Shown: piece by piece, positions 38,365 through 57,435 of the stretch
Layout of the letters: every line of letters starts with the position of its first letter
Numbering within the stretch: the stretch's first letter is position 1
Assembly (NCBI GenBank): GCA_965240325.2
Contig: OZ251227.1
Span: forward strand, 744,001 to 808,000
Direction of reading: 5' to 3'
DNA length: 64,000 nt
Origin: Rebecca billardiae RCC1528
Taxonomy: Eukaryota; Protista; Haptophyta
The notes under the pieces: model-generated
The model's input: only the letters and a program-made list of their open reading frames with translations
Told to the model about the DNA's origin: nothing
Database searches by the model: none
Made by a program: the position numbers and the translations under genes

Positions 38365-38424
38365 GTGTGTGGGGGTATACGGTGCCGCCACCCCACCCCG
38401 CCTCCCCAGCTCTCCTCCGAGCCT
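38365..38424 (+). repeat. Left terminal inverted repeat of the virus
   Basis: GTGTGTGGGGGTATACGGTGCCGCCACCCC...CCGAGCCT matches the reverse complement of 57376-57435 at 59/60 positions. Confidence 0.95.
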
Positions 38425-38449
38425 ACGACTCGTCATCCCCGGTTCTCAG

Positions 38450-38727
38450 TCGAGCCACGCCGAGCCACGCCGAGCCACATCGAGCCACGCCGAGCCGCGT
38501 CGAGCCACATCGAGTATACGGTGCCGCCACCCCACCCCGCCTCCCCAGCTCTCCTCCGAGCCTACGACTCGTCATCCCCGGTTCTCAGTCGAGCCACGTC
38601 GAGCCACGCCGAGCCACGTCGAGCCACGTCGAGCCACGCCGAGCCACGCCGAGCCACGTCGAGCCACGTCGAGCCACGCCGAGCCACGCCGAGCCACGTC
38701 GAGCCGCGTCGAGCCACATCGAGCCAC
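38450..38727 (+). repeat. Left subterminal 10-bp tandem arrays (CGAGCCACGY) with an internal re-duplication of the TIR core
   Basis: About 6 units at 38450-38513, TIR core repeated from 38514, about 14 units at 38589-38727. Confidence 0.9.
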
Positions 38728-38907
38728 GACGCCCGCCACCCATCACCACGTCGAGCCTTCGGTGCCACCACCCCACCACCGCCCCACCGCCACCGCCACC
38801 GCCACCCCGCCGCCGCCGCCCCGCCGCCGCCGCCGCCCGCCACGCCGCCGCCGCGTTTATTTCAGCGCAATATAAAATCTTACGCACGTGTATAATACTG
38901 ACCTATC

Positions 38908-39558
38908 ATGCCTTGGCGTGTGACCTGCGAAGCACGCACCGGAGCGCCCGGCTTTGCCGATGACGAGGAATACGAGTCACGCTGGTTCGTGGACCTCACG
39001 GACGCACTCCGCCACTTGATCCACTTCAGCCCCTCGGAGCGCTGGCACTGCGTCCGCCACGCCACGGTACGCTTCGAATACTCAGGCGGTCGGGCATGCA
39101 AATATAGTGACGGCCTGATTTTCTATGGAAACAGCCTCAGGGACCTCGGTGTGAGCGAGCGCACCTTTGACGACGCGTTCGAGCAGGCGCTCGGCATCAA
39201 GCCGGTCACGCTGGAGCGGAAGAACAACGTGTTTGTCCCCATCGACACGAACGCTTCCTCCGGCCGCCATCGCCTCACGCAAGAGACGATCAAGCAAAAG
39301 TCGAGGCGCTTGCTTCCTCCGGAGGAAGAATTGGAGGCGCACAGAGAGGAGAACATCGAGTGCTCCGAATGCAACCGCGAGGTGCCATTCGAGCTCTTCG
39401 CCTTCCGCCGCCGCCGAGGTGGTAGCGTGACGCGCACGATGAACTGCTACGAGTGCCACCTCGAGCAGGTGCGCATCCGCCGGGCGCGCTTCGTGAGCAA
39501 GGGCGCATCCTCGGCGGAGCGCGACGCGCAAATAAAATCGGCGATTCGCATCGCCTAG
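38908..39558 (+). CDS. Viral hypothetical protein with a C-terminal CxxC...CxxC zinc ribbon
   Basis: CSEC...CYEC; AT-rich upstream TATAAAA/TATAATA; biased codon use. Confidence 0.75.
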   Translation: MPWRVTCEARTGAPGFADDEEYESRWFVDLTDALRHLIHFSPSERWHCVRHATVRFEYSGGRACKYSDGLIFYGNSLRDLGVSERTFDDAFEQALGIKPVTLERKNNVFVPIDTNASSGRHRLTQETIKQKSRRLLPPEEELEAHREENIECSECNREVPFELFAFRRRRGGSVTRTMNCYECHLEQVRIRRARFVSKGASSAERDAQIKSAIRIA

Positions 39559-39602
39559 GAAAAATCGGCGGCGCGCATCGCCTAGGGAAAAATCGGCGCG
39601 CG
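39534..39602. promoter_or_regulatory. ~27-bp tandem repeat upstream of the true PolB start
   Basis: AAAATCGGCG..CGCATCGCCTAGG, 2.5 copies. A regulatory role is inferred from position only. Confidence 0.4.
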
Positions 39603-39753
39603 TTATTCTGGCGCCAAATAAAAATGTCAACCACCATCATAACACAAAATCTTCGCTTGTAGTATGATGAACGTTGATGAGCTCATCCGAAATGCCCGCG
39701 CGCGCCTCAACGAGCGCACCCCTCGCATCGAAATTCCGATCACGAGTCGCCTA

Positions 39754-42700
39754 CAGGGGTCTCAACAATTAGCTGTATCTCTGTTTGTGCCACTGGACAG
39801 GCATGTGAGCACTTGATTGCCTGGCTAGATGTGGTCTAGCACAGCCCACTCCCTGACCATTCTGACGAGTGGGTGGCTGCTTGGCCAGCTCTCCATGCTG
39901 GGCTGTGGTGCCATCCAGAGTGCGCATGTGCAGCAGCCCAGGTGGGTGCAGCGAGGGGTGCGGCAGGCAGCAGTGGGTGGTCAGCTTGAAAATCCATGCA
40001 GGCCAGCCACCAGCAGCTGGGCTGCAGAGCTCTTGGCTGCACCAGCCCCACTCCAGCCCCCTCAAGTCGGGTGGCTGGCCACCCTCGGGGTGTGTCAGCG
40101 GGTGCTGCTGCTGGCCTCCCAGTGCAGGGGAGCTGACCCGACAGGTCCTTGCGCAGGTGGGGGTGCGGGATTGGGCACTGTGCCACAGCAGCTGCATCCC
40201 ATGAGCTCCCCCCCAGGTGGCATGCAGCCCACCCTAGGGGGTACCAGATCCACTGCCAAGCACAATTTAGGCCTGGCCTGTGTGGGCACACGGCCCGCGA
40301 CCAGTGACGACAAGCCTGCGGCAGGATCTGGCCAGCTGCGACAGGCTGTACGCCTGCAGCCGTGTGACCTGCTGGTGTGCCCAACTCCAGCCCACGCGCG
40401 CTGGGGCTGACGCGCTGGGTCGAAACCGTCGTGCACGGGCCGTGGGGGCCGCCTGGGTCAGCCCAGGGGGGCAGGGTGAGCAGTGGCGTGCAGCTCAGTC
40501 AGAATGTGACGTTTAATTGTTGAGACCCCTGTGCCAGTAGAACAAGCCAGGCATGGATAGGCACCATGGCTTTGTGGGTGATCCGCCACCATGTTGGTAG
40601 GACGGAATGCAAGCCTGCTTTCGTGCGAGAAGACCTAGATCTTCTGCAGCACACTGCTTTGTTTTGTTCAAGGATTGCTCTCACGGTTGGTGCGAGAGGG
40701 CTACGGCAGGGGTGATTCTGCCCCTGGGGAGGCAGGGGGCAGGGCCTGGCAGTCGTACAACGCCAAGTTGGGCCCATGAGTCCCTGCAGTGCGCTGATTT
40801 GAGCACGGAAACATCCGCCAGGGCTGGTACAGCCATGCCTGGCAACGCCGCCCGAGTGCGGCTGCCATCGCAGGGGTCCATGCGGCGGCTGACTTTGGCA
40901 GCTCGCTGCTGGCGGCTGGAACTCTCGCGCCCGAATCAAGCTCAAAGTCTCGATTCCGACAGGCGTCGGGTCGGCCTTCCGAAGCAGCTTCCGGGCGTGA
41001 TGCGTTCGCTCGACTCGGAAAGGCGTTTTGCGGGCCCGCCGGATTCGCGGGCAAACGCAAACAGTTTGGCCGGCCGCTACCATGCCACCCCGAAAGGTGG
41101 CCGGTGGGCGGCCACTGGCGGGCGCAACTCGCGCGATGGTGAAGCCCACGCTCATTACGTGCCTGATGGTGGCCAAGCCAGGTGGCAAGAAGAGGAGGCA
41201 CCTTGGTCAGCCCGTGACGGTGCTCACAAGCACCAGCTGGCCCTGGCCAGTACACCCCATATGAGGGGCCAAGGCCATCATCACCTACCTCATGCAGATG
41301 CAGGTGTCCACCCCTAAGATGTTGGCACCAAGTTCGGCTTCACTGCCCTGCAATGCAGGGCGTGGCACAAGAAGCAGGCCTGGCGTGTCGTACGCGACCC
41401 GTGCGGGCCGCCCAGGCCGAACGGCAGCCCCTCTTCCATCGCCTAGCCCGAGCCCAGGTGCTACGTCTGCCCTGCGGCCAGTGGGAGCCAGTGGGGTGGC
41501 CCACGGCTGGCTGTGCAGCGCTATGAGCGGTGCCAGACCAGCTAGATAATGGGCAGGATCGGGCCTGGCGTGTCGTACGCGACCCGTACGGGCCGCCCAG
41601 GCCGAACAGCAGCCCCGGTTTCATCACCTAGCCCGAGCCCAGATGCTACGTCTGCCCTGCGACCAGTGGGCGCCAGTGCGGGTGGCCCACGGCTGGCTGT
41701 GCAGCAGCTATGAGCGGTGCCAAACCAGCTAGATGATGGGCAGGATCGGGCCTGGCGTGTCGTACGCGACCCGTACGGGCCGCCTGGGCCGAACGGCAGC
41801 CCCGGTTTCATCACCTAGCCCGAGCCCAGATGCTACGTCTGCCCTGCTGCCAGTGGGCGCCAGTGGGGTGGCCCACGGCTGGCTGTGCAGCCGCTATGAG
41901 CGGTGCCAGACCAGCGAGGTTGCCGGTCAGATCGAGCTGGGCTGGTCCCTAGTGGCATCTTTCACAGGTCTGGCGTGACATGCGCAGCTGCTCTTGCTCA
42001 TAAGAGCCATTGTTGGGCTCCTGCTGAGCCTGGGTGATGATGTGCAAGTGCATCCGACCCCGCACAGGGGTCTCAACAATTAGCTGTATCTCTGTTTGTG
42101 CCACTGGACAGGCATGTGAGCACTTGATTGCCTGGCTAGATGTGGTCTAGCACAGCCCACTCCCTGACCATTCTGACGAGTGGGTGGCTGCTTGGCCAGC
42201 TCTCCATGCTGGGCTGTGGTGCCATCCAGAGTGCGCATGTGCAGCAGCCCAGGTGGGTGCAGCGATGGGTGCGGCAGGCAGCAGTGGGTGGTCAGCTTGA
42301 AAATCCATGCAGGCCAGCCACCAGCAGCTGGGCTGCAGAGCTCTTGGCTGCACCAGCCCCACTCCAGCCCCCTCAAGTCGGGTGGCTGGCCACCCTCGGG
42401 GTGTGTCAGCGGGTGCTGCTGCTGGCCTCCCAGTGCAGGGGAGCTGACCCGACAGGTCCTTGCGCAGGTGGGGGTGCGGGATTGGGCACTGTGCCACAGC
42501 AGCTGCATCCCATGAGCTCCCCCCCAGGTGGCATGCAGCCCACCCTAGGGGGTACCAGATCCACTGCCAAGCACAATTTAGGCCTGGCCTGTGTGGGCAC
42601 ACGGCCCGCGACCAGTGACGACAAGCCTGCGGCAGGATCTGGCCAGCTGCGACAGGCTGTACGCCTGCAGCCGTGTGACCTGCTGGTGTGCCCAACTCCA

Positions 42701-42842
42701 GCCCACGCGCGCTGGGGCTGACGCGCTGGGTCGAAACCGTCGTGCACGGGCCGTGGGGGCCGCCTGGGTCAGCCCAGGGGGGCAGGGTGAGCAGTGGCGT
42801 GCAGCTCAGTCAGAATGTGACGTTTAATTGTTGAGACCCCTG
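39754..42842. mobile_element. Composite Tc1/mariner-type non-autonomous transposon (3089 bp)
   Basis: 18-bp TIR CAGGGGTCTCAACAATTA; TA TSD at 39752-53 and 42843-44; two direct 778-bp MITE units (39754-40531 and 42065-42842). Confidence 0.92.
41377..41915. repeat. ~186-bp tandem repeat, 3 copies, in the composite's cargo
   Basis: GGCCTGGCGTGTCGTACGCGACCCGT recurs at about 41377, 41562 and 41749. Confidence 0.9.
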
Positions 42843-45800
42843 TAGGCGCTACCGCAGCAGCACGCACGAACTCCATCGCGAGAGCATTCCAGTCTCCGCC
42901 GGGCACCCCCAGCTCGACGCCAGCCACCGGCCTCCGCTCCACCAGCCGCTCGCTCAGCCAATACACGCAGGAGCAGCTCGCGCGCATCCGCCAGTTCCAA
43001 GACGCATTCGAGGGCTTCGGCATGAGTGCCCCGCAAGTCCTCGCAGGTATGATTTATCAAGATCCGTGGAGCGGTAAGCGGCGCAAGATCCCCTCCAACG
43101 GCAGACAGCTCGACGCCCTCGCCGAGCGCGTCGCCAGCAAGATTTCCGGCCCCGCGCCCCGCCGCCGCCGCACGCCCGCCCGCCGCGCGCCCGACTGCGA
43201 CCGCGCTGCGAGCCTCCTCCAGCGCTTCACTCGCTCCCAGCTCGCAAACCGCCTGACTGACGCCCAGCGCACGCAACTGGAGGTCGACCGGAACCTCGCC
43301 ATGCTCTCCACGAGCATGCAGGATCGCTATTTTGAGTTCATCGACCGCAAGCGCTTTATCATGCCGCTCAAGTGGATTCTGCACGAGAATCTTGGACTGC
43401 TCCTGGAGCAGCAGCTCAACTACACGCCGAGCCAGCACCACCTCGGAGCGATTCTCCAGACGATTAATGCGACTATTGACGCCCGCCTGCAGGAGATACC
43501 GTACAGTCGCCTCTCGATGCACATTCGACTCGAATCGATATTCGCGCACGCCAAGGTGACGATTAGCAAATCCACCAAGAACGGAAAGGCCGTCGAGACG
43601 TCCGATTTCACCTGGGAGGCGGATCCCTTTGCAGCAACCATGCACGAGGTCGCTCAGCTCAAGACCCGCGAGGAGATTATGCTCCACGCGCGCGCCTTCA
43701 AGAACCAGAACGACAGGTACAATCCGAGCGCTCTCAACAAGGGGTTCTACGAGTTTGGCGTGGTCACCGCAGGCGCGAAGGAGCTCGACAACTCGACGGC
43801 GCGCCTGGTCATCGACAAGGGCAATCCCGAGGACGTGCAGCAGGTCAAGACCAAGGTCGCTGAGATACTCGCGCTCGTCACCTCCACGAGCAACCCGCAG
43901 TACAGCGCGCGGCGATTTGTGGGCCTCCTCAGCTTCGATGTGGACACCTACCCGATCAATGCCGTCCGACAGCAGGGCTCATCCTACGTCAAGCTCCCGC
44001 AGAAGTTTGGCGGCGGGAGCAAGGGCCTGATCAACCCCGTGAACAAGACCGACAACAAGTGCTTCCTGTGGGCGTCGCTCATGCACTTTGCGAACGCAGA
44101 TGGCGCCAAGAAGCAGGAGCGCACCAGCACGCTCAAGCGCTACGAGTCGATGATCACATGGCCGGAGGAGGTCAAGTTTCCGTTCGACTGCACCGACATC
44201 CCGCGCCTCGAGGAGGTCAACCCCACCCTCACCTGGAACGTCTTCTCGCTCGAGCAAGTCAAGCGCACCTCGGAGGATCATCACGAGCATCCCGAAGACA
44301 CGGACGAGTTCAAGTACCCCATCGTACCGATTCACACGACCACGCCGGAGAAGTACCGCGAGCGCACGCTCATCAACATCCTCGCGTACGAGGACCACTA
44401 CGTCTTCGTCAAGGACCTCGACAAGCTCCTCAGCGAGCGTGCGCACAACTGCGCGCACTGCCCCATCTGCACACGTCGCTTCAGGACCAAGGCAATCCGC
44501 GATCAGCACACGGCGAAGTGCAACGCCAATTGGCGCCACCTCTTCCAGCCGTGGACGCTCGAGGAGATTAAGAGCCAGGCGAGGACACCGCAGGAGCTCA
44601 AGCGCACCGAGACAGACATCACCTACTCGCAGGACACCTCAGTGGTGTGGAAGCCGGTGGTGGCGGTGGCCGACTTTGAGGCGGTCAACACGCAAGTCAA
44701 CGGGGAGACGCATCAGAAGGCGCAATCGGTGAGCCTCAAGTTTGACTTCCAGGACGGTATGGACGCCCCTGACATGGATTGCAGCTTCATGGGTCCGGAT
44801 GCGGGCGTGCGGTTTTTGCATGCGCTGCTCGACGCCACCCCCCAAGATCCGCGACGCGTGCTCGCGCTACAAGGACGACTTTTCAAAGGTCACCGCGGCC
44901 GACCGCGAGCACTTTGAGGCGAGCGAGACGTGCCACTTTTGCGGCGAGGCTGCCTTCGCCTCGAGCGCGGAGATTGCTCGCGCCGAAGCGGAGTACGAGC
45001 TCAAGTCGAAACTCGCGCCGGAGGAAAAGGACGAGTTGAAGCGCGCGCTCGAGGAGGTCCGAGCCAAGCGCAAGGTGCTCGACCACTGCCACTGCACGGG
45101 CCTCTACCGGGGTGCGGCGCACTCGCGGTGCAACCTCAAGCACGGCACACCGAGTCTCATCAGCAGCATACCGGTCTACTTCCACAATATGTCATATGAT
45201 AGCCAGCTCATCATGCAGGCGCTCTCCGACGTGAGCGTTCAGGCGCGCATCAAGGAGCACAAGGTCCGCATGAATGCCATGGTGATCAATTCCGAGCGCT
45301 TCAAGACGCTCGAGATCGGGGCCTTCCGAATCCTCGACTCGATGACGTTCCTGGGTGGAAGCTTGGCGGAATCTCTGAAGAATCTGCCCTCAGAGGACAA
45401 GCACTCACTCCGCCGGGCGGCCAACGAGCACGCCGAGCGCTTCGGCAAGGACCCGGATGCGGTCTTCGAGGCCTTCAAGCACAAACAAGTGTTCCCGTAC
45501 GAGTTCGACTGGCATCAGCACCTCGACGAGCCCATCAGCGCAGACCCTCAGCTCTTCGGCTCCAAGCTCTGTGAAGGCTACGGCAAAACCGACGAGGAGC
45601 TGGAAGAGCGCCTGGAGGCTGAGCAAAAGGAGCTCGAGGAGAGCCTGCCCGAGCGCATGAGCCGCCTGCAGGAGGCGACCGGCATCGTCACGTGGCGTGA
45701 TCTCCACGGTCTGTATCTAAGCGTTGACGTCTGTGGGCTCCAAGATTGCATGCGTGCATTCCGCAAGACCTCGATGACCACGTACGGCCTCGATCCGGCG

Positions 45801-47394
45801 TACAGCATATCAAATTCGCAATTCGCGTGGAAGGCCATGCTCAAGCTCACGGGCGTGAGCCTCGAGAGCATCCCCACGAGCGACCTGTACGAGCACGCCG
45901 AGTCCGGGCTCCGCGGAGGCATGTCGATGGCGCGCAACCGCATCGCGCGCGCGAACCACCCGGATCTTCCCGAATTTGATCCCGCCAAAGAATTCTCCGC
46001 GATCCACGACTTTGACGCCAACGCGCTTTATGCCTCGGTGATGTCGTGGAAGCTGCCGACGGGTGGGTATAAGGATGTAGATACGGAGCGCTTTGATGCC
46101 AACGATCCGCGCTACGGCTGGCTCCCGACGCGACCGAATCAGCCGTGCGAGGAGTGGCAGGGTGACGTGGGGGCGCTCGTGACGGTGGACATCGACTACC
46201 CTGACCGCTTGCACGACCTGCACAGCGACTACCCGCTACTCCCCGAGGTGATGGAGGTGCCCGATGAGATGCTCTCGCCTATGCAGCGGGGTAAGCGCGC
46301 CGTCAAGACCACCAAGCTCATTGCGCATCTTGGATCCCGCAAAAACTACACGCTCAACGTCACGATGCTCAAGTTTGCGCTGGCGCAGGGGCTCATCCTC
46401 ACCAAGGTACACCGCGTCGTCGAGTTCGACCAAAGCCCGTGGCTACGCCCGTGGGTGGATCTCAACACGCGGCTGCGCAAGCAGGGCAAGAACGCCTTCG
46501 AGGAGGGGTATTTCAAGCTCATGGTGAACGCGTGCTTCGGCAAGACGATGGAGCGCATCTACCACCACACGCAAGCGCGATTCATTGACAACCGAGCGGC
46601 ATTCACTCGAGCCATGACGAGCCACCGGGCGCTCACCTACAAGCCGATCGCACCCGAGTTTGCGCTCGTGACGATGAGCAAGCGCGAGTACGTGCGTGAC
46701 AAGCCCATCTTCGTGGGCGCCTCGATCCTCGATTTTTCGAAACTGTGGATGTATACGTTCCTGTATAATGTGGTCTACCCCACCTTCGGTCCGAAGAATG
46801 CCCGCCTCCTCGGGACGGATACCGACTCGCTGATTATGAATTTCCGGGCGCCCTCGCACGAGGCCTATTTGGAGAAAATGCTCAGCATCCGCGACGAATG
46901 GCTGGACATGAGCAAATTTCCGGAGGGGCACCCGCTCTTCACGGACGCCAACCGCAAGACGCCTGGCTTTTTCAAGGACGAGCTCGGCGACAATCTGGCG
47001 GTGGCAGTGGCCTTTGTGCGGGCGAAGACCTACTCGATCAAGACGCTCAAGAGCCTCGAGGACGAGCTTGAGGACGTCCACCGAGCCAAGGGCGCCCCCT
47101 CCCGCTGCGTGCAAAATAGCCTCACGCACGACGACTATGAGACGACGATTTTGGAGAGTTCGAGCGTCAGTGCGCAGTACCACGATTTGCAATATAAAAA
47201 TCACAACATAGTTTTCAGCCGACGCGTGAAGAAGGTGCTCGACTGGGTCGACGATAAGGGCTATCATCTCTCGGCCGAGCGCACGATCGCCCTCAATCAC
47301 TGGCGCATCAAGGCCGGCGCCCTCGCAGCGGCGATGGACTAGCGCGTTTTTCTCGGCTCAATTAATTTTCTCACGCGCTAGTAGTAGTAAACAA

Positions 47395-47913
47395 ATGGCC
47401 CCCTGCGATTTTGACGTGTCCGCTCGCCACGATTGTCGCTGTCGCGATTGCCGCGATTACCGCGATTGCCGTGAGATGCGCACCGAGTTCGAGGCCCTCA
47501 AGGAGCGCGTGGTGGCTCTCGAGCGTGTCGTCGTCGCCAAGCCACCCAAGCCGAGCGCGCGCCCCGGGTCGCTCACGGTAGCATCAATAACCGCCATCGA
47601 GAGTCACTTTGGCGGTATCGAAGTGGTCGACGCCATGTTCTTCAACGAGCACTGCGTCGTGGGTAGGCTCAGCGAGCCCTTCGTGAAGGGTCACACTGTA
47701 CCGCAATCGTTCAAAATTACCCGCAAAATTGTCGCTATCAGCGAGGCGTACGGCGAGCCGGGTCGGGCGCCGATATATCAGTCGGCTACGCCAGCAAGCC
47801 TTCGGGACGTGTTGTGGCCGCGCGCACGTCAGCGAGGCGGAGCTTCGCCAAGCGCGCCAAGCGCGCCTCCCGCGGATCAACCGATGTTCGCAGATTCTGA
47901 TGGTGAGGACTGA
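47395..47913 (+). CDS. Viral hypothetical protein (Cys-rich N-terminus, short coiled coil, acidic tail)
   Basis: ORF follows AT-rich TAAACAAATG directly after polB. Confidence 0.7.
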   Translation: MAPCDFDVSARHDCRCRDCRDYRDCREMRTEFEALKERVVALERVVVAKPPKPSARPGSLTVASITAIESHFGGIEVVDAMFFNEHCVVGRLSEPFVKGHTVPQSFKITRKIVAISEAYGEPGRAPIYQSATPASLRDVLWPRARQRGGASPSAPSAPPADQPMFADSDGED

Positions 47914-48019: not shown

Positions 48020-48670
48020 CTATTTTGAGGGGTTCTTTTTGCGAGCGGACGGCCGCGCGGACGGACGCAGTAACCGGATACCCTCGCTGCGAATGCCGGT
48101 GATAGGGCCCGTGAATCGCGCGGTGATGACCTGCGCACGGCGATTGGCGTTCGAACGCGTGGTCACGTTCGCGCCGGCGGGGATGATGTTGTTTTGCTCG
48201 ACGTCCGGGTCGCGCCCGCCTTGGCGCACGACCTTCCCTGCCTTGTCGAACACGTACCATTTTCCATCGACGGGGCGGCGCGCGCGCGTCAGTAGCCGGG
48301 CGACGTTCTCTTCGAGCTTTGCCGGATCGGAAATTTTGCGCCACTCCTTATCGAGCGGCGGCTTGACGAAGCCAAAGCCGGGGTTTGTGAGCGCGAGCAG
48401 GCGCTTCTCGGCGGGGAAGACCAAATTCGGAGACACGACCAAAAACCCGACTAACCTGAACGAATTCCCGGGCTTGGCGTAGGGCATCATATGGCGATAG
48501 CCTTTAAAGGTTCGACTCACAATATTAGCGGTGAGCCCCATTTTGAACAAACGGTTAGAAGTGTCCCACCCCGGAGCAATCACGTACAAGCCTGCCGCCG
48601 GCTTTCCCTCCGGAGTGCGCTTGAGCAAATTGGCGTTTTTCATAGCCATTTGGAATTGCGATGATTTCAT
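48020..48670 (-). CDS. T5orf172 / GIY-YIG-like nuclease-domain protein
   Basis: GLYVI...LFKMGLTANIVSR...AEKRL pattern. Confidence 0.65.
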   Translation of the reverse strand: MKSSQFQMAMKNANLLKRTPEGKPAAGLYVIAPGWDTSNRLFKMGLTANIVSRTFKGYRHMMPYAKPGNSFRLVGFLVVSPNLVFPAEKRLLALTNPGFGFVKPPLDKEWRKISDPAKLEENVARLLTRARRPVDGKWYVFDKAGKVVRQGGRDPDVEQNNIIPAGANVTTRSNANRRAQVITARFTGPITGIRSEGIRLLRPSARPSARKKNPSK

Positions 48671-48679
48671 CTTGGCTTT

Positions 48680-48952
48680 TTAGCTAATTATTACTCCGAT
48701 TTTACTCTCATTCGTAGCGAGCGACTTGGAGTCGCCCCACAGCAAGTGGCGGCTGTAATAGATGCCAGACTCGGGGTCGTCCCAGCCCTTATCGTGGCGA
48801 TGGCGAGCGATCCACGCCGATTTCTTCGCAGGATCGCCATGATCGATGTACGTCGACCCGCCACGCGCGCCAAAGTGGAGCGTCCGACCACCCGGCGAAG
48901 TCAGCATGAATCGCTTGTCTTTGCGCGTAGACCGTTTTAGGCGGCGATTCAT
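48680..48952 (-). CDS. Tlr6F-like (DUF5754) conserved PLV protein
   Basis: STRKDKRFM...TLHFGA..STYIDHGD..KK.AWIARH...YYSRHLLW. Confidence 0.85.
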   Translation of the reverse strand: MNRRLKRSTRKDKRFMLTSPGGRTLHFGARGGSTYIDHGDPAKKSAWIARHRHDKGWDDPESGIYYSRHLLWGDSKSLATNESKIGVIIS

Positions 48953-48984: not shown

Positions 48985-51165
48985 ATGTCGTCGATTTTTG
49001 GCGACTCATCGAGCACCTCCGCAGCCATTGATGGATCCGTCCAGGCGCTCGGGACGGGCGCCGTGGCGTGGTCCGGCGTCGTGCGCACCACCATGACCGG
49101 TGAAGGCAGCTTGTCGGCGACCTTTGACCCGGCTTTGCCTGATGGCGAATTGACGCTGCGCTTGGCGGGCGACCGTGATGCTTTCAAAGTGACCAGCGCA
49201 ACCCTGACGCCGACGACCCTGAGCGTCACGTGGACCCGTCAATATCACGATGGAGTCAACCGCGTGTTCGACGAAGAAATCCACCCGTACTTTGATGTGC
49301 TCCTCGACGGCCAAGCAATCACGAGCTTTCCGATTAGCGGGCGGGGCGTGTACTCGCTCGACGGGGCCGTCGTCAATGGCGTCGTAACGCAAAGCTATTT
49401 TCAAAATCCGCTCGTGAATTTCCCGCTAAATGCTGATTTGCTCGACACGGCCGACCGGGGACTCTCCTTGGCTCTGGTCGGGACCACCGCGTTCGGTAAT
49501 GAGGCCGTCGAGGCCGCCGCAGATGGGGTGACGCTCACAGTGGACCACCCGGGCCACCACGACGGGAATTTGACCGTGTGCTGCTACTTGAGGGGCCCAC
49601 CGGCGCTGGGTACTTCCTACGTGCGCCAGGGTAGCGCGATTGCCTTCGCCGAGTGCCGCCTCGAAGCCCCGACCGCAAATACCATGTGCGAGACCTCGCT
49701 CGAATTTACGTCGGCCTCCAACCAGCTCGACGAGGACAACCGTGACCAGTGGAAGTACGTGGCGCTCGTGCAAGATGAGGCAAACACCCAAATATTCGTC
49801 GATCACACATTGGTGCACACCCGCAGCTTGGTAGGCGAGAAGCGGCTCTCTCTGTTTTACCCCACTAAAATCGGCCTCGCCCAATACGGTGCCGCTGCGC
49901 ACCTCGGAGTCTGGCCGAGCGCGCTGGATGCGTCGGAGCGGTTGGCCCACGCGGAATCGTGGCGGGGTGTTGTCGTGAAAAGAACGTGGCTGCTCGACGG
50001 CGACTTGCTCGAGGTCGACGGGGCCGCCGCCGCGCTGCAGCCCACGGCCGGCGATTATTTGATGACGAGTGGCTATCTCGAGATGCAAAGTACTAGCACG
50101 CTGCACCTGGGTCTCAACGAGATGCCCGACATGCTCGGCGGCGACCGCTTCTCGCTGGCGGCATGGGTGTACCGCCCGAACGACCAAGATAGCGTGCGCA
50201 TGTGGCTCCTCGAGGATGGCGTCACCGATTTCACATTCGAAATCATCGCTGGTCAGCTGCGCTCGGAGCTCGGCGCGACGGCGTTCCAGGACTTGGCAGG
50301 ACCGGCACACGGCGGATGGCACCACGTTGCGCAAACGGTGGACGGTACAGTCTCCAAAATCTATATCGATGGCGTGCTCGTGAGTACTGCTGCGCTGCCG
50401 GCCACTTTTACCCCGCTGCTCAGCATCATCGGCCACCGCTTTGCCACCATGCCCGCAGGTGTGCGCCTCTACGCGATGTCGATCGCGCGCGGTATCATCC
50501 ACGTGCCGACGGTGATGAATCTGTACTCACCATTGCCAAGCGGCGTTCATGCGCTGGCGAGTGCCGCATATTTTGGCAGCGTGGTTGATGAGACTGGTAA
50601 TGAGCCCGATCTGGTGCTCACGAATGTCTCGACTGGCAGCGCGGATGGCCACAACTATTTTGAGGCCACTACATCAGGTCCTGGGACTGCTGCAGTGCTC
50701 ACTCCAATATCCGACTGGAGCGGCGATGTGGACCGCGCAATCTCGCTGTGGTACTCATACAATACTGGGATCGTGCAGTCGTGGCTGTGGACAGCAGGAC
50801 CGTATAGCGACTACACCAGCATGCGCGTGCGCGCCACATCCATCCGCGTCGAGGCCTCGGTCTCGGAGGATGCTACTGTCACTCTCACCAGCGCTTGGGC
50901 ACACATCGTGCTCAACATGCCTGCCACTTCCAATGGGAACATGTCGATGTATGTGAATGGCGTAGCGGTCAGTGGATTCGGGAGCACAACCGCAGATCCG
51001 GCGCCCAACATGTCGACGATGGCTCTGTTTCAGCCCAGCGACTACATCCATCACGGTACTGGAGGCAAAATATCATCGTTCCTCTTTTTCAATGGCAAAA
51101 CGCTTTCACAGGAGGAAGTTACCGAGCTGTATGCACTCAATGGCGCCAATCCGTTCGCGGCGTAA
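48985..51165 (+). CDS. LamG/concanavalin-A-like repeat protein; candidate fibre or receptor-binding protein
   Basis: Three repeats of W.(H/Y)(V/I).....(I/M)(Y/F)(V/I)(D/N): WKYVALV..IFVD, WHHVAQTVDG..IYIDG, WAHIVL..MYVNG; also FSLAAWV and LSQEEVTELY. Confidence 0.75.
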   Translation: MSSIFGDSSSTSAAIDGSVQALGTGAVAWSGVVRTTMTGEGSLSATFDPALPDGELTLRLAGDRDAFKVTSATLTPTTLSVTWTRQYHDGVNRVFDEEIHPYFDVLLDGQAITSFPISGRGVYSLDGAVVNGVVTQSYFQNPLVNFPLNADLLDTADRGLSLALVGTTAFGNEAVEAAADGVTLTVDHPGHHDGNLTVCCYLRGPPALGTSYVRQGSAIAFAECRLEAPTANTMCETSLEFTSASNQLDEDNRDQWKYVALVQDEANTQIFVDHTLVHTRSLVGEKRLSLFYPTKIGLAQYGAAAHLGVWPSALDASERLAHAESWRGVVVKRTWLLDGDLLEVDGAAAALQPTAGDYLMTSGYLEMQSTSTLHLGLNEMPDMLGGDRFSLAAWVYRPNDQDSVRMWLLEDGVTDFTFEIIAGQLRSELGATAFQDLAGPAHGGWHHVAQTVDGTVSKIYIDGVLVSTAALPATFTPLLSIIGHRFATMPAGVRLYAMSIARGIIHVPTVMNLYSPLPSGVHALASAAYFGSVVDETGNEPDLVLTNVSTGSADGHNYFEATTSGPGTAAVLTPISDWSGDVDRAISLWYSYNTGIVQSWLWTAGPYSDYTSMRVRATSIRVEASVSEDATVTLTSAWAHIVLNMPATSNGNMSMYVNGVAVSGFGSTTADPAPNMSTMALFQPSDYIHHGTGGKISSFLFFNGKTLSQEEVTELYALNGANPFAA

Positions 51166-51209: not shown

Positions 51210-51845
51210 ATGATACCCACTGTATCGACCGCCGAAGGCGAAGCGCGCGTCGCGAAAGCGGCCTGGGACGCCGGTACCACGCTCGCCCGAGATCGCAAGT
51301 TCCTCATCGAGGCAAGCTATATGAGCAAGGCGGCAGCCCGACCGCACCTAGCCAAGCGCGGGTACCGACTCGATGAGCGCCTGTCGGATGAAGCGGACAA
51401 AGTAGCCGTGCACATCGCGAGCGGTCGGCCCGTCGTACTTTTCCGAGGCTCGGCATCATTCACCGACTGGGCCGTCTCGGACGTCCTGATCGCGCTGGGA
51501 TTGAGCGCCAAGGATCCACGCCACGCGCGCGCGCGCAAGCTGGTGGAGATCGTCAAGCGCAAATACGGGCAGTCCACCGCTGCGGTGGGGCACTCTCTGG
51601 GTGGGCACCTCGCCGAAGAAAGCGGCGCCTCGCAGATTCACACGTCACAAAAAGCGGCCGGTCTAAAAGATATCGGAAAGACTTTACCGAAAAGCCAGTT
51701 CGATACCCGCTCGCCGGGTGATATAGTGAGCGCGCTGTCGGTCACGCAGCGCGGTGGGCGCCGGCAGACCCTCGGGCGCGCCAGCTTTGTGGACGCTCTA
51801 CAGAGCCCAGCGTTGTTTGCCTTGAATCAGCACCGTGCTCGGTAA
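51210..51845 (+). CDS. Class 3 lipase-like alpha/beta hydrolase
   Basis: VVLFRGS..DW..D, GHSLGG nucleophile elbow, DIVS, terminal His. Start at ATG 51210. Confidence 0.88.
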   Translation: MIPTVSTAEGEARVAKAAWDAGTTLARDRKFLIEASYMSKAAARPHLAKRGYRLDERLSDEADKVAVHIASGRPVVLFRGSASFTDWAVSDVLIALGLSAKDPRHARARKLVEIVKRKYGQSTAAVGHSLGGHLAEESGASQIHTSQKAAGLKDIGKTLPKSQFDTRSPGDIVSALSVTQRGGRRQTLGRASFVDALQSPALFALNQHRAR

Positions 51846-51920
51846 TTTTAATCCGCGCTCGGTAATTCACGCTGAGTAATTCTTAGCGCTCGGTAATTCG
51901 CGCTGAGTAATTCTTAGCGC
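51838..51920. terminator. ~31-bp tandem repeat between convergent viral genes; possible 3'-end signal
   Basis: GCTCGGTAATTCRCGCTGAGTAATTCTTAGC, 2 copies plus a partial. Function inferred from position. Confidence 0.35.
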
Positions 51921-52207
51921 AAGTAACGATCCGCCCGGCTGGCAGCCGCGTCCGCGCGTCCGGCGATCTGGCGCCCGCGATTCACCGCTCGCCGCGCGGC
52001 TCCAGTGTAGGGGCTGGCGACGTCGCCGAGGCCCTCCGTACGATCGATTTCATTCAAAAATTGGTTTACGTCGCCGCCGATTTTGTCGACGCACGGCTTC
52101 AGGTGGTGCGCCGCCGAGCTGATGGGGCGGCCGAGTCGACGCGCTGTGTTTGCCAGCCCGCCGAGCCGACAGCGAATGCCTCGCGTGAGCCTGCCAAGAA
52201 ATGACAT
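51914..52207 (-). CDS. Small basic viral protein with an N-terminal amphipathic helix
   Basis: MSFLGRLTRGIR...; immediately downstream of MCP on the same strand. Confidence 0.65.
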   Translation of the reverse strand: MSFLGRLTRGIRCRLGGLANTARRLGRPISSAAHHLKPCVDKIGGDVNQFLNEIDRTEGLGDVASPYTGAARRAVNRGRQIAGRADAAASRADRYLR

Positions 52208-52242: not shown

Positions 52243-53556
52243 TTACACGGCGAACTGGAGCTGGTTCTGCGCGACCTCCATCATGACGTCGTGCAGGGCC
52301 CACGCATGCCACGTGAACGGCGCACCGTGGTTGCTGTCGGCCTCGAAAATGGCGTGCTCCGTGTCCAGGCGGCGGCCGTCGAAGAGGATGTCGGATTGCG
52401 AGAATGCCGACGTATTGAATGCTATGGCAAAAGCTGAGCTCGCGAAGCGCGCGCCGTTCACTTTGGAGGCGTAGTCGGCGACGCCAAGGGCGTTGAACGC
52501 CCGCACGAGCTCCGCGCGCGTCTCGGCGCCGCCATTCGTCGCGCTGACCGGCTGGTCTGGCACGAGCGTCGAGCCAATGCGCAGCTGCCACTTGGAGATG
52601 GCCGCGCGAGTGCGCAGCGTGACATCGCCCGCGTAAGCATTGCTGTTCGCATCCGGATAGGCGGCGATGATGATCGTATTGACACTCGCGAGGCGGAAGG
52701 GCAGCTGCCAGCTCGTCGCGGTGTTGGGTGATACGGAGTGCTGCGCGTGGAGGTAGCTCATCGACGGAACGTAGAGGTGGTCGAGGCTGCGCGCAATCTT
52801 GGTGTAGGCCGAATCCGAGAGCAGCACCGTGCCCAGCTGCATCTTGACGTCCTGGATCGATGGCATAGCCCCGGGATCAATCGTGTAAACGCCCCAGTCC
52901 TTCGTCTGCGCGAGGTGAATGTCCACGCGGAGGCCTTGGTGCAGCTCGGAGATGGGGATGGCCTTGCCGCAGAGCGCACCGAACACGTACACGAGCGGGA
53001 GGCACACCGTGAGCAAGCCGCTATTCGCGATGAGCGCACCCTTGGGCGCGTTGAGAGCATTGTTGATCGTCGCCTGCGACAGAGTCGCGGCGGTGACATC
53101 ATAATCGGCGCTGCCGAGCATCGAGGCAGTGGAGAAGCACGACGAAGGCCCCGACTGGAAATCCAGCAGGAGATTGTGCAGCAGGCCCGCCTTGCCCGTC
53201 GAGGCGATCATCTGAGAGCCGTGATAGGCGTCGATGCGCTCGATGAGGCTGTAAGCGCTCTGCGAGAGAGTCAGAGAGGTGCCAGAGGTGTTGTTAATCG
53301 TGAATTGAACGACGCTCTGGCTGGGATCCATCATAGCGCCTGGCGTACCCGTAGGCAGATCGAACTGGACCACCTGCCCCGGTGAGAAAGACGACGACGG
53401 CCCGGCATAGACGGTCGTGCGCTTGTACGTAGCGCCAACGGCCACTGGCTTGGGATTCGCAAAGTCGTAATACATCGGCGCCGTCTCCTCCTGCTCGAGC
53501 ACCATCGCCTCGTCCGCGCGAATGTCGTTCTTCATATACCGCCCGGCGTACGCCAT
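52243..53556 (-). CDS. Double jelly-roll major capsid protein (PLV type)
   Basis: 437 aa, beta-rich. SFSPGQVVQFDLP..MDPSQSVVQF, YSLIERI, LRVDIHL, WQLRIGSTLVP. Adjacent to penton and ATPase. Confidence 0.88.
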   Translation of the reverse strand: MAYAGRYMKNDIRADEAMVLEQEETAPMYYDFANPKPVAVGATYKRTTVYAGPSSSFSPGQVVQFDLPTGTPGAMMDPSQSVVQFTINNTSGTSLTLSQSAYSLIERIDAYHGSQMIASTGKAGLLHNLLLDFQSGPSSCFSTASMLGSADYDVTAATLSQATINNALNAPKGALIANSGLLTVCLPLVYVFGALCGKAIPISELHQGLRVDIHLAQTKDWGVYTIDPGAMPSIQDVKMQLGTVLLSDSAYTKIARSLDHLYVPSMSYLHAQHSVSPNTATSWQLPFRLASVNTIIIAAYPDANSNAYAGDVTLRTRAAISKWQLRIGSTLVPDQPVSATNGGAETRAELVRAFNALGVADYASKVNGARFASSAFAIAFNTSAFSQSDILFDGRRLDTEHAIFEADSNHGAPFTWHAWALHDVMMEVAQNQLQFAV

Positions 53557-53593: not shown

Positions 53594-54355
53594 TTACACA
53601 ACGACAAATTTGAGCACGACCGAGATTTCGGCACCGTTGAGATCCACTTCAGTCATCGTCTCAGAATCGAGGAGGCGCAGATCGAGATTTTGCACTGAGC
53701 GGCGGTTCGTCTCGAGGAGGTCGTCTGTTTGGCTCTGGTAAGCGAGGACTTGGCCGAAAGCAACCGTATTTTGGATGGTGACGAGAATATTGCTCGTCGA
53801 GCCTGAGTTCAAGGTCGAGTCGCGCGACTTTACGTCGAGGCCTTCGCACACGAGGTGGTAGCCGCGCGGAATCAGATCGACCACGGCAGGCGCCTCGATG
53901 CTTCCAGTAGCTGGTACGATGAGATCCGACTGCGCCAGACCCAAGACGCGCGTCGCGGCGGACGAGCCCTTGACCGTGATTGGGTTGGCGCTCGAGTTGG
54001 CAAACGTGAATTTACCGCGCGACGAGTCGAAGGTCGCCGTGAGCGTGGCGTTGACCGGCGAGCCCGCAAAGAGCGTGTCCAGCGCGGTGGCGAGCGAAGT
54101 GGCTGTGTAATTCTTGGGTGGGATTGTCATAGTGGTGTCGCCCCAATTCCCGGCGAGGCCAATCGCGCCATTGGAGGCGTCGACCGCATAACGGCACGAC
54201 GGGAAGCTCACCGACTCGACGGCGACGAGAATGCTCTCATCGTGGGTCGCCATGATCGGATGGCTCAGCGTAAAGTCAGCGGCGCTCGTCATCGTGCGCC
54301 CCAGCGGGAAGCGGTCCGCCTGAGCCGTGTGCAGGTGAAGCCGGTGAGTCGTCAT
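53594..54355 (-). CDS. Minor capsid protein (penton, single jelly roll)
   Basis: FTLSHPI..VESVSFP, IPPKNYT..LATAL, NILVTI, LDLRLLD..VDLNG..SVVLKF. Confidence 0.85.
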   Translation of the reverse strand: MTTHRLHLHTAQADRFPLGRTMTSAADFTLSHPIMATHDESILVAVESVSFPSCRYAVDASNGAIGLAGNWGDTTMTIPPKNYTATSLATALDTLFAGSPVNATLTATFDSSRGKFTFANSSANPITVKGSSAATRVLGLAQSDLIVPATGSIEAPAVVDLIPRGYHLVCEGLDVKSRDSTLNSGSTSNILVTIQNTVAFGQVLAYQSQTDDLLETNRRSVQNLDLRLLDSETMTEVDLNGAEISVVLKFVVV

Positions 54356-54509
54356 TGACAGTGGCGGAGATATTTACGTCGATATTTGGGGCGACGATTG
54401 GGGCGACGATTGCGTCGATGATCTCATCATCCAAGCCAGGACCCATCCGCTTGCGCGCGATGAATCTGGCGGCCGCCTCCCACGAAAAATCAAACATGGC
54501 GGGGTCCAT
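54276..54509 (-). CDS. Small viral hypothetical protein overlapping the penton start
   Basis: ATG preceded by GAAAA; fills the gap upstream of the penton. Confidence 0.4.
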   Translation of the reverse strand: MDPAMFDFSWEAAARFIARKRMGPGLDDEIIDAIVAPIVAPNIDVNISATVNDDSPASPAHGSGGPLPAGAHDDERR

Positions 54510-54556: not shown

Positions 54557-55018
54557 ATGGACGAGGCACCGCCGCCGCCGCCAGCGCTCGCCGTGCCGAT
54601 CAAGCAGCCCAAAGCACGCACGGCGGCGCAGATCAAAACCACCGAGGTGATGCGCTTGGCCAAGCTGCGAAACACGTACACCGAGTACGCCCAGCGGTAC
54701 GCCAATCTCGCGGCTCAAGAGCAAGCCAAAATCGACGAGTTGAACGCTACTGTGCCAGTGCCAGAGCCCCCGCCAATCAAGCGCATGACCCCACCGCCGC
54801 CGCCGAAGGAGCCCGACGAGGACACGCTGGTGCTCGAAGACGACCAGCCAATCGAGTCTACGCGAGCGCCACCGCCGCCGCCGCGGGCGCCGTCGCGGGC
54901 AGCGCCGAGGGCACCGCCGAGTGCGCCGCCGAGGGCACCGCCGAGGGCACCGCCGAGTGCGCCGCCGAGGGCACCGCCGAGTGCGGCACCGCCGCAAAGA
55001 AAACTGAGGTACATCTAG
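54557..55018 (+). CDS. Pro-rich viral protein with (APPS/APPR) repeats
   Basis: TATAAAAATG start; 12-bp tandem repeats at ~54885-54995. Confidence 0.7.
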   Translation: MDEAPPPPPALAVPIKQPKARTAAQIKTTEVMRLAKLRNTYTEYAQRYANLAAQEQAKIDELNATVPVPEPPPIKRMTPPPPPKEPDEDTLVLEDDQPIESTRAPPPPPRAPSRAAPRAPPSAPPRAPPRAPPSAPPRAPPSAAPPQRKLRYI

Positions 55019-55034
55019 AAAGCTCTATCTAAAA

Positions 55035-55739
55035 ATGCAGATTGCCGAAGAGGCAAATCAAGTCGATCTGAGACTACCGCGCATCACAGCGGACAAGCCG
55101 TTAAAGGTGGGCCTACCAGAGCCGCTGCCCAACCTGACCTTCCACTGGGGCGTGTTTGGCCCGCCACGCAGTGGCAAGTCGAGCCAGGTGGCGGGCTTGA
55201 TCACTGGCCCCTACCGAGGTGTTTTTGGAAATGTTATCTGGTGCGCACCGCAGACATCGATGGACTCGTTCGCAAAGTCGCCGCTGCGCGACCTGGAATT
55301 TGTGTTTACCGAATTTCATGGTGCGGTCCTGAACGAAATCATCGACATTGCCGAGGAGAATGCCGCCGGCGGCCGTCCAACGCTGCTGGTGATTGACGAT
55401 TTCGCGGCCAGCCTGCGCGACGCAAACCTGCAAAAGGCCTACGCCAAAATGGTGCAGAATCGGCGGCACATCCGACTTTCGATCATCGTGATCGCACAAG
55501 GCTATATGAGCGTGCCTCTGAATGTGCGCAAGCTGTTTTCAAACATTACCATGTTTCGCCCGAACAATTCCCGCGAGCTTACCGCGCTGCACTCCGAGCT
55601 CATCCCCATGTCAAAGGTGGACTTTATGGGAGTCTATCACTACATATTCGGAAATGAGCGTCCGCACACGTTCATGTTCATGGACGTTGATGGTGGCATT
55701 TTATATCGAGAGTGGAATCGGTTGCGTATTAAAAATTAA
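55035..55739 (+). CDS. A32/FtsK-HerA family genome-packaging ATPase
   Basis: Walker A GPPRSGKS, Walker B LLVIDD, and RRHIRLSIIVIAQ motif. Confidence 0.95.
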   Translation: MQIAEEANQVDLRLPRITADKPLKVGLPEPLPNLTFHWGVFGPPRSGKSSQVAGLITGPYRGVFGNVIWCAPQTSMDSFAKSPLRDLEFVFTEFHGAVLNEIIDIAEENAAGGRPTLLVIDDFAASLRDANLQKAYAKMVQNRRHIRLSIIVIAQGYMSVPLNVRKLFSNITMFRPNNSRELTALHSELIPMSKVDFMGVYHYIFGNERPHTFMFMDVDGGILYREWNRLRIKN

Positions 55740-55756
55740 TCCGTGCTAGCAGTAAC

Positions 55757-56551
55757 ATGGCGACTGCAGTCCATCACCACACCTTCCGCGACACGGTGCC
55801 AGCGCGAGTGACTCACTTCACGCTGAACGGCACGCCGTATGCCGGCGCCATGCACCACCGTGGCAAGAAAGACGGGTGGTGGTCCGGCTTGCATCCAGGT
55901 CCAAGCTCGCGCAAGCTCGTACACCACAAGAAGCCCATGATATTGCCTGCGCTGGTCACGATCGCCAGGCGAGGCCCACCTACCAAGACCAAGACCAGCT
56001 TTGGGCGCGTCGCCCCCGGCGTGTACGACCTCGGACAGTTCACGACGGACGAGGGTCACTACGATGCGAAGCACCTGAAATTCCCGCAACGCGATGCGAG
56101 CGGTCAGCCGATCTCGCGGCTGGTGGTGCGCTCGCAGCCGGCACCTACTATGACGAGCTCTGACTCCGCCAATCGTCCTGCTGGGAGACCCGCGGCGGCG
56201 CCCGCAACGCCCGCGAAGATCCTCGTGCCCGCGACGCCTTCCCCCGCCGGACCAAGCCGCTCGAGTTCTGTCAGAGTCCCGCCAGTACCGGACTCGTCTG
56301 GGGGTGCATCCGTTGATAATGAATTGCCTGTAGTTAGAAGCTCCACTCGAACTGCCAACAAGAATATTGCCGAAGACAGAATCAATTCATACCTCGATAA
56401 CTTCTTGGCGAGATCTAATCAGCTGGGCTGGACTCCCGAATTTCTAGAGCAGATAATTGCGGCAAATCTAAAGATTAGAGTAAATCTCGTCCGACAAATC
56501 CTGCGAGAGAGGGATGCTGCCGAGGCGCTGGCATCGCTTCGTGGATCTTAA
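55757..56551 (+). CDS. Viral hypothetical protein
   Basis: 264-aa ORF 17 bp after the ATPase; no motif recognised. Confidence 0.7.
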   Translation: MATAVHHHTFRDTVPARVTHFTLNGTPYAGAMHHRGKKDGWWSGLHPGPSSRKLVHHKKPMILPALVTIARRGPPTKTKTSFGRVAPGVYDLGQFTTDEGHYDAKHLKFPQRDASGQPISRLVVRSQPAPTMTSSDSANRPAGRPAAAPATPAKILVPATPSPAGPSRSSSVRVPPVPDSSGGASVDNELPVVRSSTRTANKNIAEDRINSYLDNFLARSNQLGWTPEFLEQIIAANLKIRVNLVRQILRERDAAEALASLRGS

Positions 56552-56570
56552 TGAAATCTTAGTCGCTGTT

Positions 56571-56684
56571 ATGTGGTGTGCTCTGCTGTTTGCGCTTGTA
56601 GTTGGAACTAGCATTGGCCAGTTCATTTGGATTGCGTTCTTGATGCCTGCTCCTAAGGCGATACCGCGGGAGAAGCCTTCTTAG
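56571..56684 (+). CDS. 37-aa predicted single-pass membrane peptide (not in the ORF track)
   Basis: MWCALLFALVVGTSIGQFIWIAFLMPAPKAIPREKPS*, read by hand. Confidence 0.4.
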   Translation: MWCALLFALVVGTSIGQFIWIAFLMPAPKAIPREKPS

Positions 56685-56972
56685 CGGAAGTGGTATACAA
56701 GCACCTTGCCCTTGATGGCCATGCCGCGCACCGCATCGGCTACCTCGAACACAGGCGTATCGTACAGTTTGATGTAGGCCTCAGCATCGAGCAGCTCGAT
56801 GTCGATGAGATCAAAGGTGCGAGTGCGCTGGAGGCGCTTGCTCAGGTAGCCGTCGCGAAGCGTGATGGTCGCTCAGGTACTTACCCGATGGCTTGCGCAC
56901 CTCCGTGCGCCGGCCCTCGTCGAGCCACGTCGAGTCACGGTCGAGCGGGAGCGAGACCGTTGGGGTAACCAT
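56681..56972 (-). pseudogene. Frameshifted small viral gene, possibly ASCH/PUA-like
   Basis: MVTPTVSLPLDRDSTWLDEGRRTEVRKPSGKYLS, then a frame change at ~56872 to TITLRDGYLSKRLQRT...GKVLVYHFR*. Confidence 0.35.
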
Positions 56973-57000
56973 CGTGCGGTGCGTGGCTTCGTGGGGCTCC

Positions 57001-57345
57001 GTGAGCGCGCTTTTCACCTAGGCCGCTTGTCTTTAACTACGAACCGCCACGGGCTTCGTGGGGGGCTTCGTGGGGCTCTGTGAGGGCGCTTTTTCACCTA
57101 GACCGCTTGTCTTTAACTACGAACCGCCACGGGCTTCGTGGGGGCTTCGTGGGGCTCTGTGAGGGCGCTTTTCATGAGGGTCGCTATCCTTTAACTGCAC
57201 ATGAGTCCGGATGCTCAAAAATGAGTTCAGTACGGTGGGGCTTCGTGGGGCTTCGTGGGGCTTCGTGGGGCTTCGTGGGGCGGCTCGGGGCTCGTGGTGG
57301 GATGGTGGCTCGTGGGTCGTCGTGGGTCGTCGTGGGTCGTGGTGG
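57001..57345. repeat. Right subterminal repeats of the virus
   Basis: ~79-bp unit x2.5 (57001, 57080, 57159); 10-bp units GGCTTCGTGG and GTCGTCGTGG. Confidence 0.9.
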
Positions 57346-57375
57346 GGTGGGGTGGCGGCGGCGTGGCGGTGGCGG

Positions 57376-57435
57376 AGGCTCGGAGGAGGGCTGGGGAGGC
57401 GGGGTGGGGTGGCGGCACCGTATACCCCCACACAC
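57376..57435 (-). repeat. Right terminal inverted repeat of the virus
   Basis: Ends ...CACCGTATACCCCCACACAC. Confidence 0.95.

Follow-up and report, generated by a model that had tools for sequence, protein, structure and literature searches.

Footprint-free insertion of a Polinton-like virus with no integrase found into a transporter gene of the haptophyte Rebecca billardiae

We analysed a 64,000-nucleotide stretch of the genome of the haptophyte Rebecca billardiae RCC1528 (GenBank assembly GCA_965240325.2, contig OZ251227.1, positions 744,001 to 808,000; hereafter the window), which contains an endogenous Polinton-like virus (PLV). An MFS transporter gene (PF07690) occurs twice in the window: one copy is intact and the other is split by the 19,071-bp viral insert at 38365-57435 (Table 1). 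Virus and host are joined bluntly, symmetrically and without a footprint, and the element lacks an rve integrase. With a rough probability of 0.45, we favour the reading that the virus was inserted by a tyrosine recombinase (Yrec), either supplied in trans by a co-resident related virus or carried by the element and later lost.

Because a near-identical empty paralog lies on the same contig, the junction can be placed to the base. The empty site reads ...CGCCCGC^TGCGC... at 19292^19293. In the filled site the host letters ...CGCCCGC are followed by the first letters of the element, GTGTGTGGGGG, and its last letters, CCCCCACACAC, are followed by TGCGC.... The flanks match the paralog without a mismatch over 742 bases left and 326 bases right of the insert, and both converge on one phosphodiester of the MFS gene. 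Relative to the paralog no base was duplicated, deleted or added as filler, in agreement with the first-pass annotation, which had called the insertion scarless.

Forty-nine boundary shifts (-3 to +3 on each side) were tried in the comparison of the filled and the empty site. They revealed no target-site duplication (TSD) of 5-6 bp; the sole duplication compatible with the empty site was a single C, the same alternative parse that had been noted before. Under this parse the right end loses one base of the terminal repeat, and the parse is uninformative because a 1-bp overlap with either element end is expected at 55% of the positions in the MFS gene. A two-base core of the serine recombinase type was rejected: it needs one mismatch (donor CG, target CT) and equals the 1-bp C parse, being indistinguishable from chance. 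Erasure of a TSD by gene conversion from the paralog was discarded by reasoning as impossible, as the paralog would match either copy of a TSD. Neither a target consensus nor a palindrome was seen at the insertion site, which is GC-rich (CGCCCGC^TGCGC, not AAATTT), and donor and target match over at most 1 bp. The zero footprint and the symmetric ends rule out ordinary rve integration.

Pfam search of 150 of the 151 six-frame open reading frames (ORFs) of at least 70 aa gave no match to the rve, tyrosine or serine recombinase families; the remaining ORF is a frame lying in the repeats of the right end. As a positive control, Pfam found rve directly behind pPolB in L002 and L003, two Mavericks whose polymerase is of the same type. 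The L002 rve, used as a query, found nothing in the window. Because the controls were positive while this query found nothing, we conclude that an rve integrase is absent. Tyrosine recombinases were likewise not matched in Pfam, PHROGs or NCBIfam. The Pfam-based part of this negative is weak, because in 706 PLVs of R. lacustris PF00589 finds 0 recombinases where a profile search finds 249 (Table S6 of PMC12220804, columns read by eye). The earlier statement that the virus has no recognisable integrase thus holds for rve, whereas for tyrosine recombinases it amounts to none having been found by methods of which Pfam misses those of PLVs. The intergenic gaps in the virus are all 130 bases or shorter and leave no room for a hidden recombinase gene.

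Three orphan ORFs (38908, 47395 and 55757, named by their first positions) had been put forward as possible integrases. PHROG integrase families gave no match to them at E up to 1. Their H-x-x-R motifs are preceded by merely 46, 11 and 7 residues, respectively, and no Tyr follows 25-45 residues downstream in any of the three. With too few residues upstream and no Tyr downstream, the order R...HxxR...Y is unattainable in these proteins. The HCVRH motif of ORF 38908 was considered as a recombinase box and rejected on the same grounds (only 46 residues precede it, and no Tyr is suitably spaced). The orphans appear unlikely to be integrases. Of the structural comparison proposed for all viral ORFs, the part on the major capsid protein (MCP) was run with Foldseek and matched Vp54 of PBCV-1 (E 6.5e-19); the single-sequence fold of ORF 38908 was too poor for a verdict (pLDDT 42), its best match being the zinc region of Hpy99I at Z 4.1.

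The copy has been damaged. Both termini are complete, as the designation 'full-length' implied, but the virus is not intact, and three lesions were found in it. First, a nested mobile element breaks the first part of the pPolB gene. Second, the two remaining parts of pPolB are joined across a frameshift at a run of six C (44838-44843), where a contig of an independent sequencing run is one base shorter; this frameshift may be a lesion or an assembly error. Third, a small ORF near the right end is startless in this copy, and a related contig carries 26 extra bases at 56866, inside it. The copy is probably dead, judging by these lesions, and its gene list may differ from that of the virus that integrated.

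The independent reads come from a single public run (X1, share 0.09), which covers part of the stretch; uncovered parts carry no meaning. No RNA run was listed for the stretch. On a 19.9-kb stretch the run gave 49 contigs, a count that includes host and nested-element pieces: 12 at 99% identity or more, 14 at 95-99%, 10 at 90-95% and 13 below 90%. They cover the host flank, the nested element and scattered viral pieces. Because the run holds related sequence at several identity levels, several related sibling viruses probably exist. Among the contigs listed none bridges either virus-host junction. One crosses the empty site and lends it weak support, reaching just 17 bases to the left (below the 31-base rule) and being indistinguishable from the paralog. 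The junctions rest on one assembly and one event.

Among the options offered in the first-pass annotation, a recombinase acting in trans gave the best fit, taken jointly with later loss of such a gene. We rank this reading first because the published TSD-free PLVs are those with Yrec, because Yrec is usual in the PgVV group and because supply in trans was proposed in 2015. The probable sibling viruses in run X1, the MCP relatives in Pavlovales and the presence of Yrec in 4 of 9 haptophyte PLVs also speak for it. PLVs that have terminal inverted repeats (TIRs) as their boundaries and lack a TSD are described among Yrec-encoding cryptophyte clusters (in the part of PMC12220804 that treats them) and for the Oxyrrhis element OmPLV, in a text that calls the precise integration mechanism unknown even with Yrec (PMC12721341). 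According to Roitman et al. (bioRxiv 10.1101/2022.07.28.501842), PgVV-like PLVs carry Yrec more often than any other integration gene. The passages of Yutin et al. 2015 on integrated PLVs without an integration enzyme propose that it is supplied in trans (PMC4642659). By this route a linear, terminal-protein-primed viral genome would have been inserted by a helper recombinase recognising its inverted ends, and would later have decayed to a dead copy movable only with helper functions. Given the deletions and insertions in this copy, loss of a recombinase gene is plausible. No base is missing from either end, which fits an end-directed chemistry.

Several points weigh against a tyrosine recombinase. 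Classical tyrosine recombinases exchange strands across an overlap of 6-8 bp. Staggered exchange on a head-to-head donor would be expected to leave an off-centre opening or a coupling sequence, and neither was seen: the ends are exactly symmetric, and the match between donor and target does not exceed 1 bp. The symmetric junction with zero footprint is a poor fit to staggered recombinase chemistry. Siblings carrying a recombinase were not seen, and scans of viral contigs gave no close relative. In L001, a distant pPolB relative, no integrase was found either in 14.6 kb with one end cut. A helper, moreover, need not exist, as Chlorodendraceae are described as having no integrase in or outside their elements (passages of PMC9356565).

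The main rival, which we hold to be somewhat unlikely, is capture of the linear viral genome by host end-joining at a blunt break, with removal of the terminal proteins and ligation of both ends untrimmed. The exactly symmetric ends, the insertion in the middle of a coding sequence and the lack of target homology, consensus or palindrome are what such a capture would give, and pPolB implies a linear genome. The difficulty is that four DNA ends would have been joined without loss or gain of a base, although proteins would block the viral 5' ends. Trimming of the ends is frequent in end-joining captures, and a single event cannot reveal the expected spread of junction types. Integrated PLVs that lack an integrase and have no helper in the genome, as reported in part of PMC9356565, are in favour of this route. 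A related proposal, which we also consider unlikely, is that the element belongs to a pPolB-bearing, PgVV-related PLV lineage that never had an integrase and whose complete ends are joined bluntly and base-precisely at breaks made by its own GIY-YIG-like nuclease or by the host.

Quite unlikely, in our estimate, is a virus-encoded function that escaped recognition, with the GIY-YIG-like ORF 48020 cutting the target or one of the orphans 38908, 47395 and 55757 being a new or remote recombinase. ORF 48020 lies convergently behind pPolB, in the slot where L002 and L003 have rve, and ORF 38908, which adjoins the left end, contains a zinc ribbon of a nuclease-associated kind. Pfam, besides missing PLV recombinases (0 matches to PF00589 against 249 in Table S6 of PMC12220804), also missed the element's own capsid. 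Against this stand the unattainable motif order in the orphans and their lack of a match to PHROG integrases (E up to 1), NCBIfam or, at 0.9, the Atlas. The GIY-YIG label is an assumption from motif likeness, and such nucleases cut and do not join. The EndoVII domain that had been named as a possible cutter proved to be a short motif within the pPolB exonuclease, also present in an unrelated Maverick-type pPolB, and not a gene of its own.

Improbable is a DDE enzyme acting in trans, the rve of another element or a Spy-like transposase, with a duplication of 0-1 bp. Precedents are EMALE virophages, with TSDs at times as short as 1 bp (as stated in PMC8547959), and Spy elements, inserting without a TSD (as stated in PMC4482050), and a 1-bp C duplication is compatible with the empty site. 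Against this, chance alone would give such a parse at 55% of sites, and the right end then lacks one base; the target is GC-rich and not AAATTT, and rve is listed for 0 of 9 haptophyte PLVs in Table S6 of PMC12220804. Very improbable is an assembly artefact, a free viral genome or repeat stitched into the host contig: no independent contig among those listed bridges a junction and the MFS gene is duplicated nearby, but two independent junctions coincide exactly at a single phosphodiester of one gene, the two MFS copies have differing flanks beyond the gene, and a CpG-depleted mobile element of host type inside the virus points to chromosomal residence.

The element has the features of a PLV, namely a double jelly-roll capsid protein, an A32-type ATPase, TIRs and a length without the nested element that lies in the range of 14-40 kb. 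The MCP has 386 relatives at E 0.001 or lower; among ten that were looked up, Diacronema lutheri and Pavlovales sp. CCMP2436 were named, and identity to a D. lutheri MCP (P0008) is 30%. D. lutheri MCPs stand under the PgVV columns in Table S4 of Bellas 2023 (PMC10120064; columns counted by hand). By MCP likeness the element appears related to PgVV-group PLVs, and Tlr6F, a marker gene of the PgVV/Gezel group, is present (PF19058, labelled Tlr6F in Table S6 of PMC12220804). The ATPase matched that of L001 at E 5e-22, and the latter itself matched PF04665 at E 5e-13. The N-terminal part of pPolB matched the Mavericks L002 (E 1e-7) and L003 (E 2e-4) by tblastn. ORF 38908 gave a PHROG match over residues 129-194 (phrog_1035, E 7e-5) and no homologues, and its fold is of low confidence; phage tblastn found no match to ORFs 38908 and 55757. 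The best Atlas scores, 0.87 for ORF 38908 and 0.75 for ORF 47395, are below 0.9 and serve as leads only. ORF 48020 carries motifs that we take to be GIY-YIG/T5orf172-like; no database match confirmed this label, Pfam and phage tblastn gave no match, and a sequence search of the PDB gave nothing relevant. The product of ORF 51210 is presumably a lipase, by motif likeness. Pfam found no Ulp1-type maturation protease in the element, in a search run without a positive control.

Table 1. Features of the viral insertion and its host gene (positions in the window)
Feature	Position	Strand	Remarks
Intact MFS paralog	18431..20068	-	545 aa; PF07690 E 7e-25; empty site 19292^19293, codon 259
Interrupted MFS gene, 3' part	37503..38364	-	match to paralog
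Endogenous Polinton-like virus	38365..57435	.	19,071 bp in total, 15,980 bp less the nested element
Left TIR	38365..38427	+	46 bp perfect, 63 bp at 97%; GT repeat at start
Left subterminal repeats	38375..38730	+	139-bp tandem duplication and 10-bp repeat arrays
Orphan ORF 38908	38908..39558	+	216 aa; C-terminal zinc ribbon resembling the N-terminal end of EndoVII/HNH nucleases; no catalytic part seen
pPolB start, probable first 30 codons	39664..39753	+	cut by nested element; inferred from frame
Nested mobile element	39754..42842	.	3,089 bp; two 780-bp direct repeats around 1.5-kb middle; non-coding
pPolB N-terminal part	42845..44917	+	terminal-protein and vOTU region, from resemblance to pPolBs of Mavericks
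pPolB C-terminal part	44799..47342	+	exonuclease with EndoVII-like motif, polymerase; PF03175 E 7e-7; alignment with P0162
Orphan ORF 47395	47395..47913	+	172 aa; Cys-rich start, low-complexity end; no family
ORF 48020	48020..48670	-	216 aa; convergent, behind pPolB
DUF5754 (Tlr6F) protein	48680..48952	-	PF19058 E 3e-16
Laminin-G fibre-like protein	48985..51165	+	726 aa; PF13385 E 2e-22
Lipase-like protein	51210..51845	+	211 aa; 35% to L001 protein; weak Mbeg1-like match
97-aa ORF	51914..52207	-	no family
Major capsid protein, double jelly-roll	52243..53556	-	predicted model pLDDT 82
Probable minor capsid protein	53594..54355	-	position and size only; no family match
77-aa ORF	54276..54509	-	77 aa
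Proline-rich ORF	54557..55018	+	153 aa
A32-type packaging ATPase	55035..55739	+	PF04665 E 2e-4, below curated cut-off
Orphan ORF 55757	55757..56551	+	264 aa; 44% P/S/A/T/G; no family
Small ORF remnant	56681..56872	-	no start codon; 26 bases more in related contig at 56866
Right TIR	57373..57435	-	pairs with left TIR
Interrupted MFS gene, 5' part	57436..58078	-	match to paralog

BLAST matched 61 of 63 bases between the TIRs, of which 46 are a perfect run, and no further TIR copies were found in the window besides an internal duplication. The right subterminal region has other 10-bp arrays and a 79-bp repeat (56984-57350). The viral ends differ from each other inward of the short terminal repeat, and the left-end 10-mer recurs a few times at 56908-56939 in direct orientation. 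From the sequences of its ends, the viral genome may have arisen by recombination between two end types.

The nested element looks composite from its repeat structure. Its 780-bp units are identical, each with inverted ends ACAGGGG...CCCCTGT, and the middle holds three 186-bp repeats. The outer flanks are either a TA duplication or a blunt T^A insertion, and the inner ends suggest that the 780-bp units might also insert bluntly at T^A in CCTAGG. Its CpG ratio is 0.55 versus 1.26-1.4 for the virus, and in run X1 it forms a separate contig of greater depth. Its frames gave no Pfam match, and no coding capacity was found in it.

Viral contigs were scanned for relatives with the MCP, pPolB, ATPase, lipase, TIR pattern and two MCP alignments, and none was found; a scan with the pPolB pair alignment gave 3 loci, two of which are ordinary rve-bearing Mavericks. 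A metagenome scan gave one distant PLV, L001, which is cut at one end. It is AT-rich, 14.6 kb long, and has a related capsid (24% MCP identity), an ATPase, a lipase and a pPolB of another type; no integrase match was obtained in the 11 ORFs scanned. The prokaryote genomes searched yielded no relative.

The host genes are GC-rich and intron-poor, which together with the named relatives of the MCP suggests a haptophyte-like algal host. The interrupted MFS gene (57117-58037, minus strand) now runs into the viral repeat, and its 3' half (37503-38321, minus strand) has an in-frame ATG of its own, so that two half-transporters are possible in principle. Fold-back structures with arms of about 400 bp (98-99% identity) lie at 14286-15359, 20336-21441 and 58207-59315. 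The fold-backs beside the two MFS copies are only about 68% alike, versus 96-99.5% for the MFS genes, which suggests that the block was duplicated long ago and that the gene was copied or converted recently; beyond the gene the two copies have differing flanks. A 3.5-kb element with inverted ends of the CATTGCGTTAAT type is present in three near-identical copies (923-5146, 23212-26696 and 60435-63919). Two of these share the right flank past the element, one copy lies inverted with an interruption at 4160-4893, and the longest frame tested had no Pfam match.

Integrated PLVs with a capsid, an ATPase, in some cases a protein-primed polymerase, and neither RVE nor Yrec are in print, in passages of Yutin et al. 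(PMC4642659) and of Chase et al. 2022, who call the mechanism in Chlorodendraceae unknown (PMC9356565; cited in bioRxiv 2026.07.28.741278), and our element resembles them. It differs from the PLVs of Chase et al. in having a PgVV-related capsid, where theirs is of the TVS group. RVE and YR are treated as the integration genes in sections of bioRxiv 2026.06.19.733378 and PMC7805220. With the PgVV/Gezel PLVs of haptophytes, as far as these are described, the element shares MCP, ATPase, Tlr6F, lipase-like and GIY-YIG-like genes, TIRs made of repeat units and relatives in D. lutheri; unlike Gezel, which has Yrec and TVpol-S3H, it has a Maverick-type pPolB and no Yrec was found. In Table S6 of PMC12220804 (columns by eye) the haptophyte PLVs have Yrec in 4 of 9, rve in none and pPolB in none. 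The Gezel-like PLVA and PLVB of Cymbomonas combine a PgVV-like capsid with pPolB but, unlike our element, are described in PMC10675990 as carrying Yrec or DDE.

The order terminal protein-vOTU-exonuclease-polymerase, given for Maverick pPolB in PMC11161782, is shared by L002, L003 (31-32% identical) and, in broken form, the present copy. Mavericks and Polintons differ from it in having rve right behind pPolB, TSDs of 5-6 bp and an unrelated capsid group. Spy transposons are alike in being TIR elements without a TSD and unlike in being non-viral, with a DDE transposase and an AAATTT target (by the description in PMC4482050). The Yrec-bearing PLVs of cryptophytes and Oxyrrhis are also TIR-bounded without a TSD, but encode the recombinase. 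Of the 298 PLVs in cryptophyte cluster C1, Yrec is present in 232 and rve in 2, so that neither was detected in about 64 (PMC12220804); copies bounded by TIRs, with neither integrase nor TSD, are thus already in published sets, unremarked in the text concerned.

Integrase-less integrated PLVs, supply in trans and TSD-free PLVs with Yrec are therefore all described, in the passages cited, and the route need not be an undescribed one, as the first-pass annotation had it. What seems new is a base-resolved, symmetric junction with zero footprint for an integrase-less PLV. Our literature search, mostly of open-access text without bioRxiv supplements, found no filled/empty junction for such a virus; the passages of Chase et al. 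and Yutin et al. on integration hold no such comparison, and 'target site' and 'TSD' are missing from the main text of PMC9356565.

How integrase-less PLVs enter chromosomes is stated as an open question in that paper, in its discussion of the Chlorodendraceae elements. One dead copy alone does not reveal the enzyme. If the lineage to which the element belongs never had an integrase, its insertion would represent a third way of integrating besides those by rve and by tyrosine recombinase, and would also explain the integrase-less PLVs of Chlorodendraceae.

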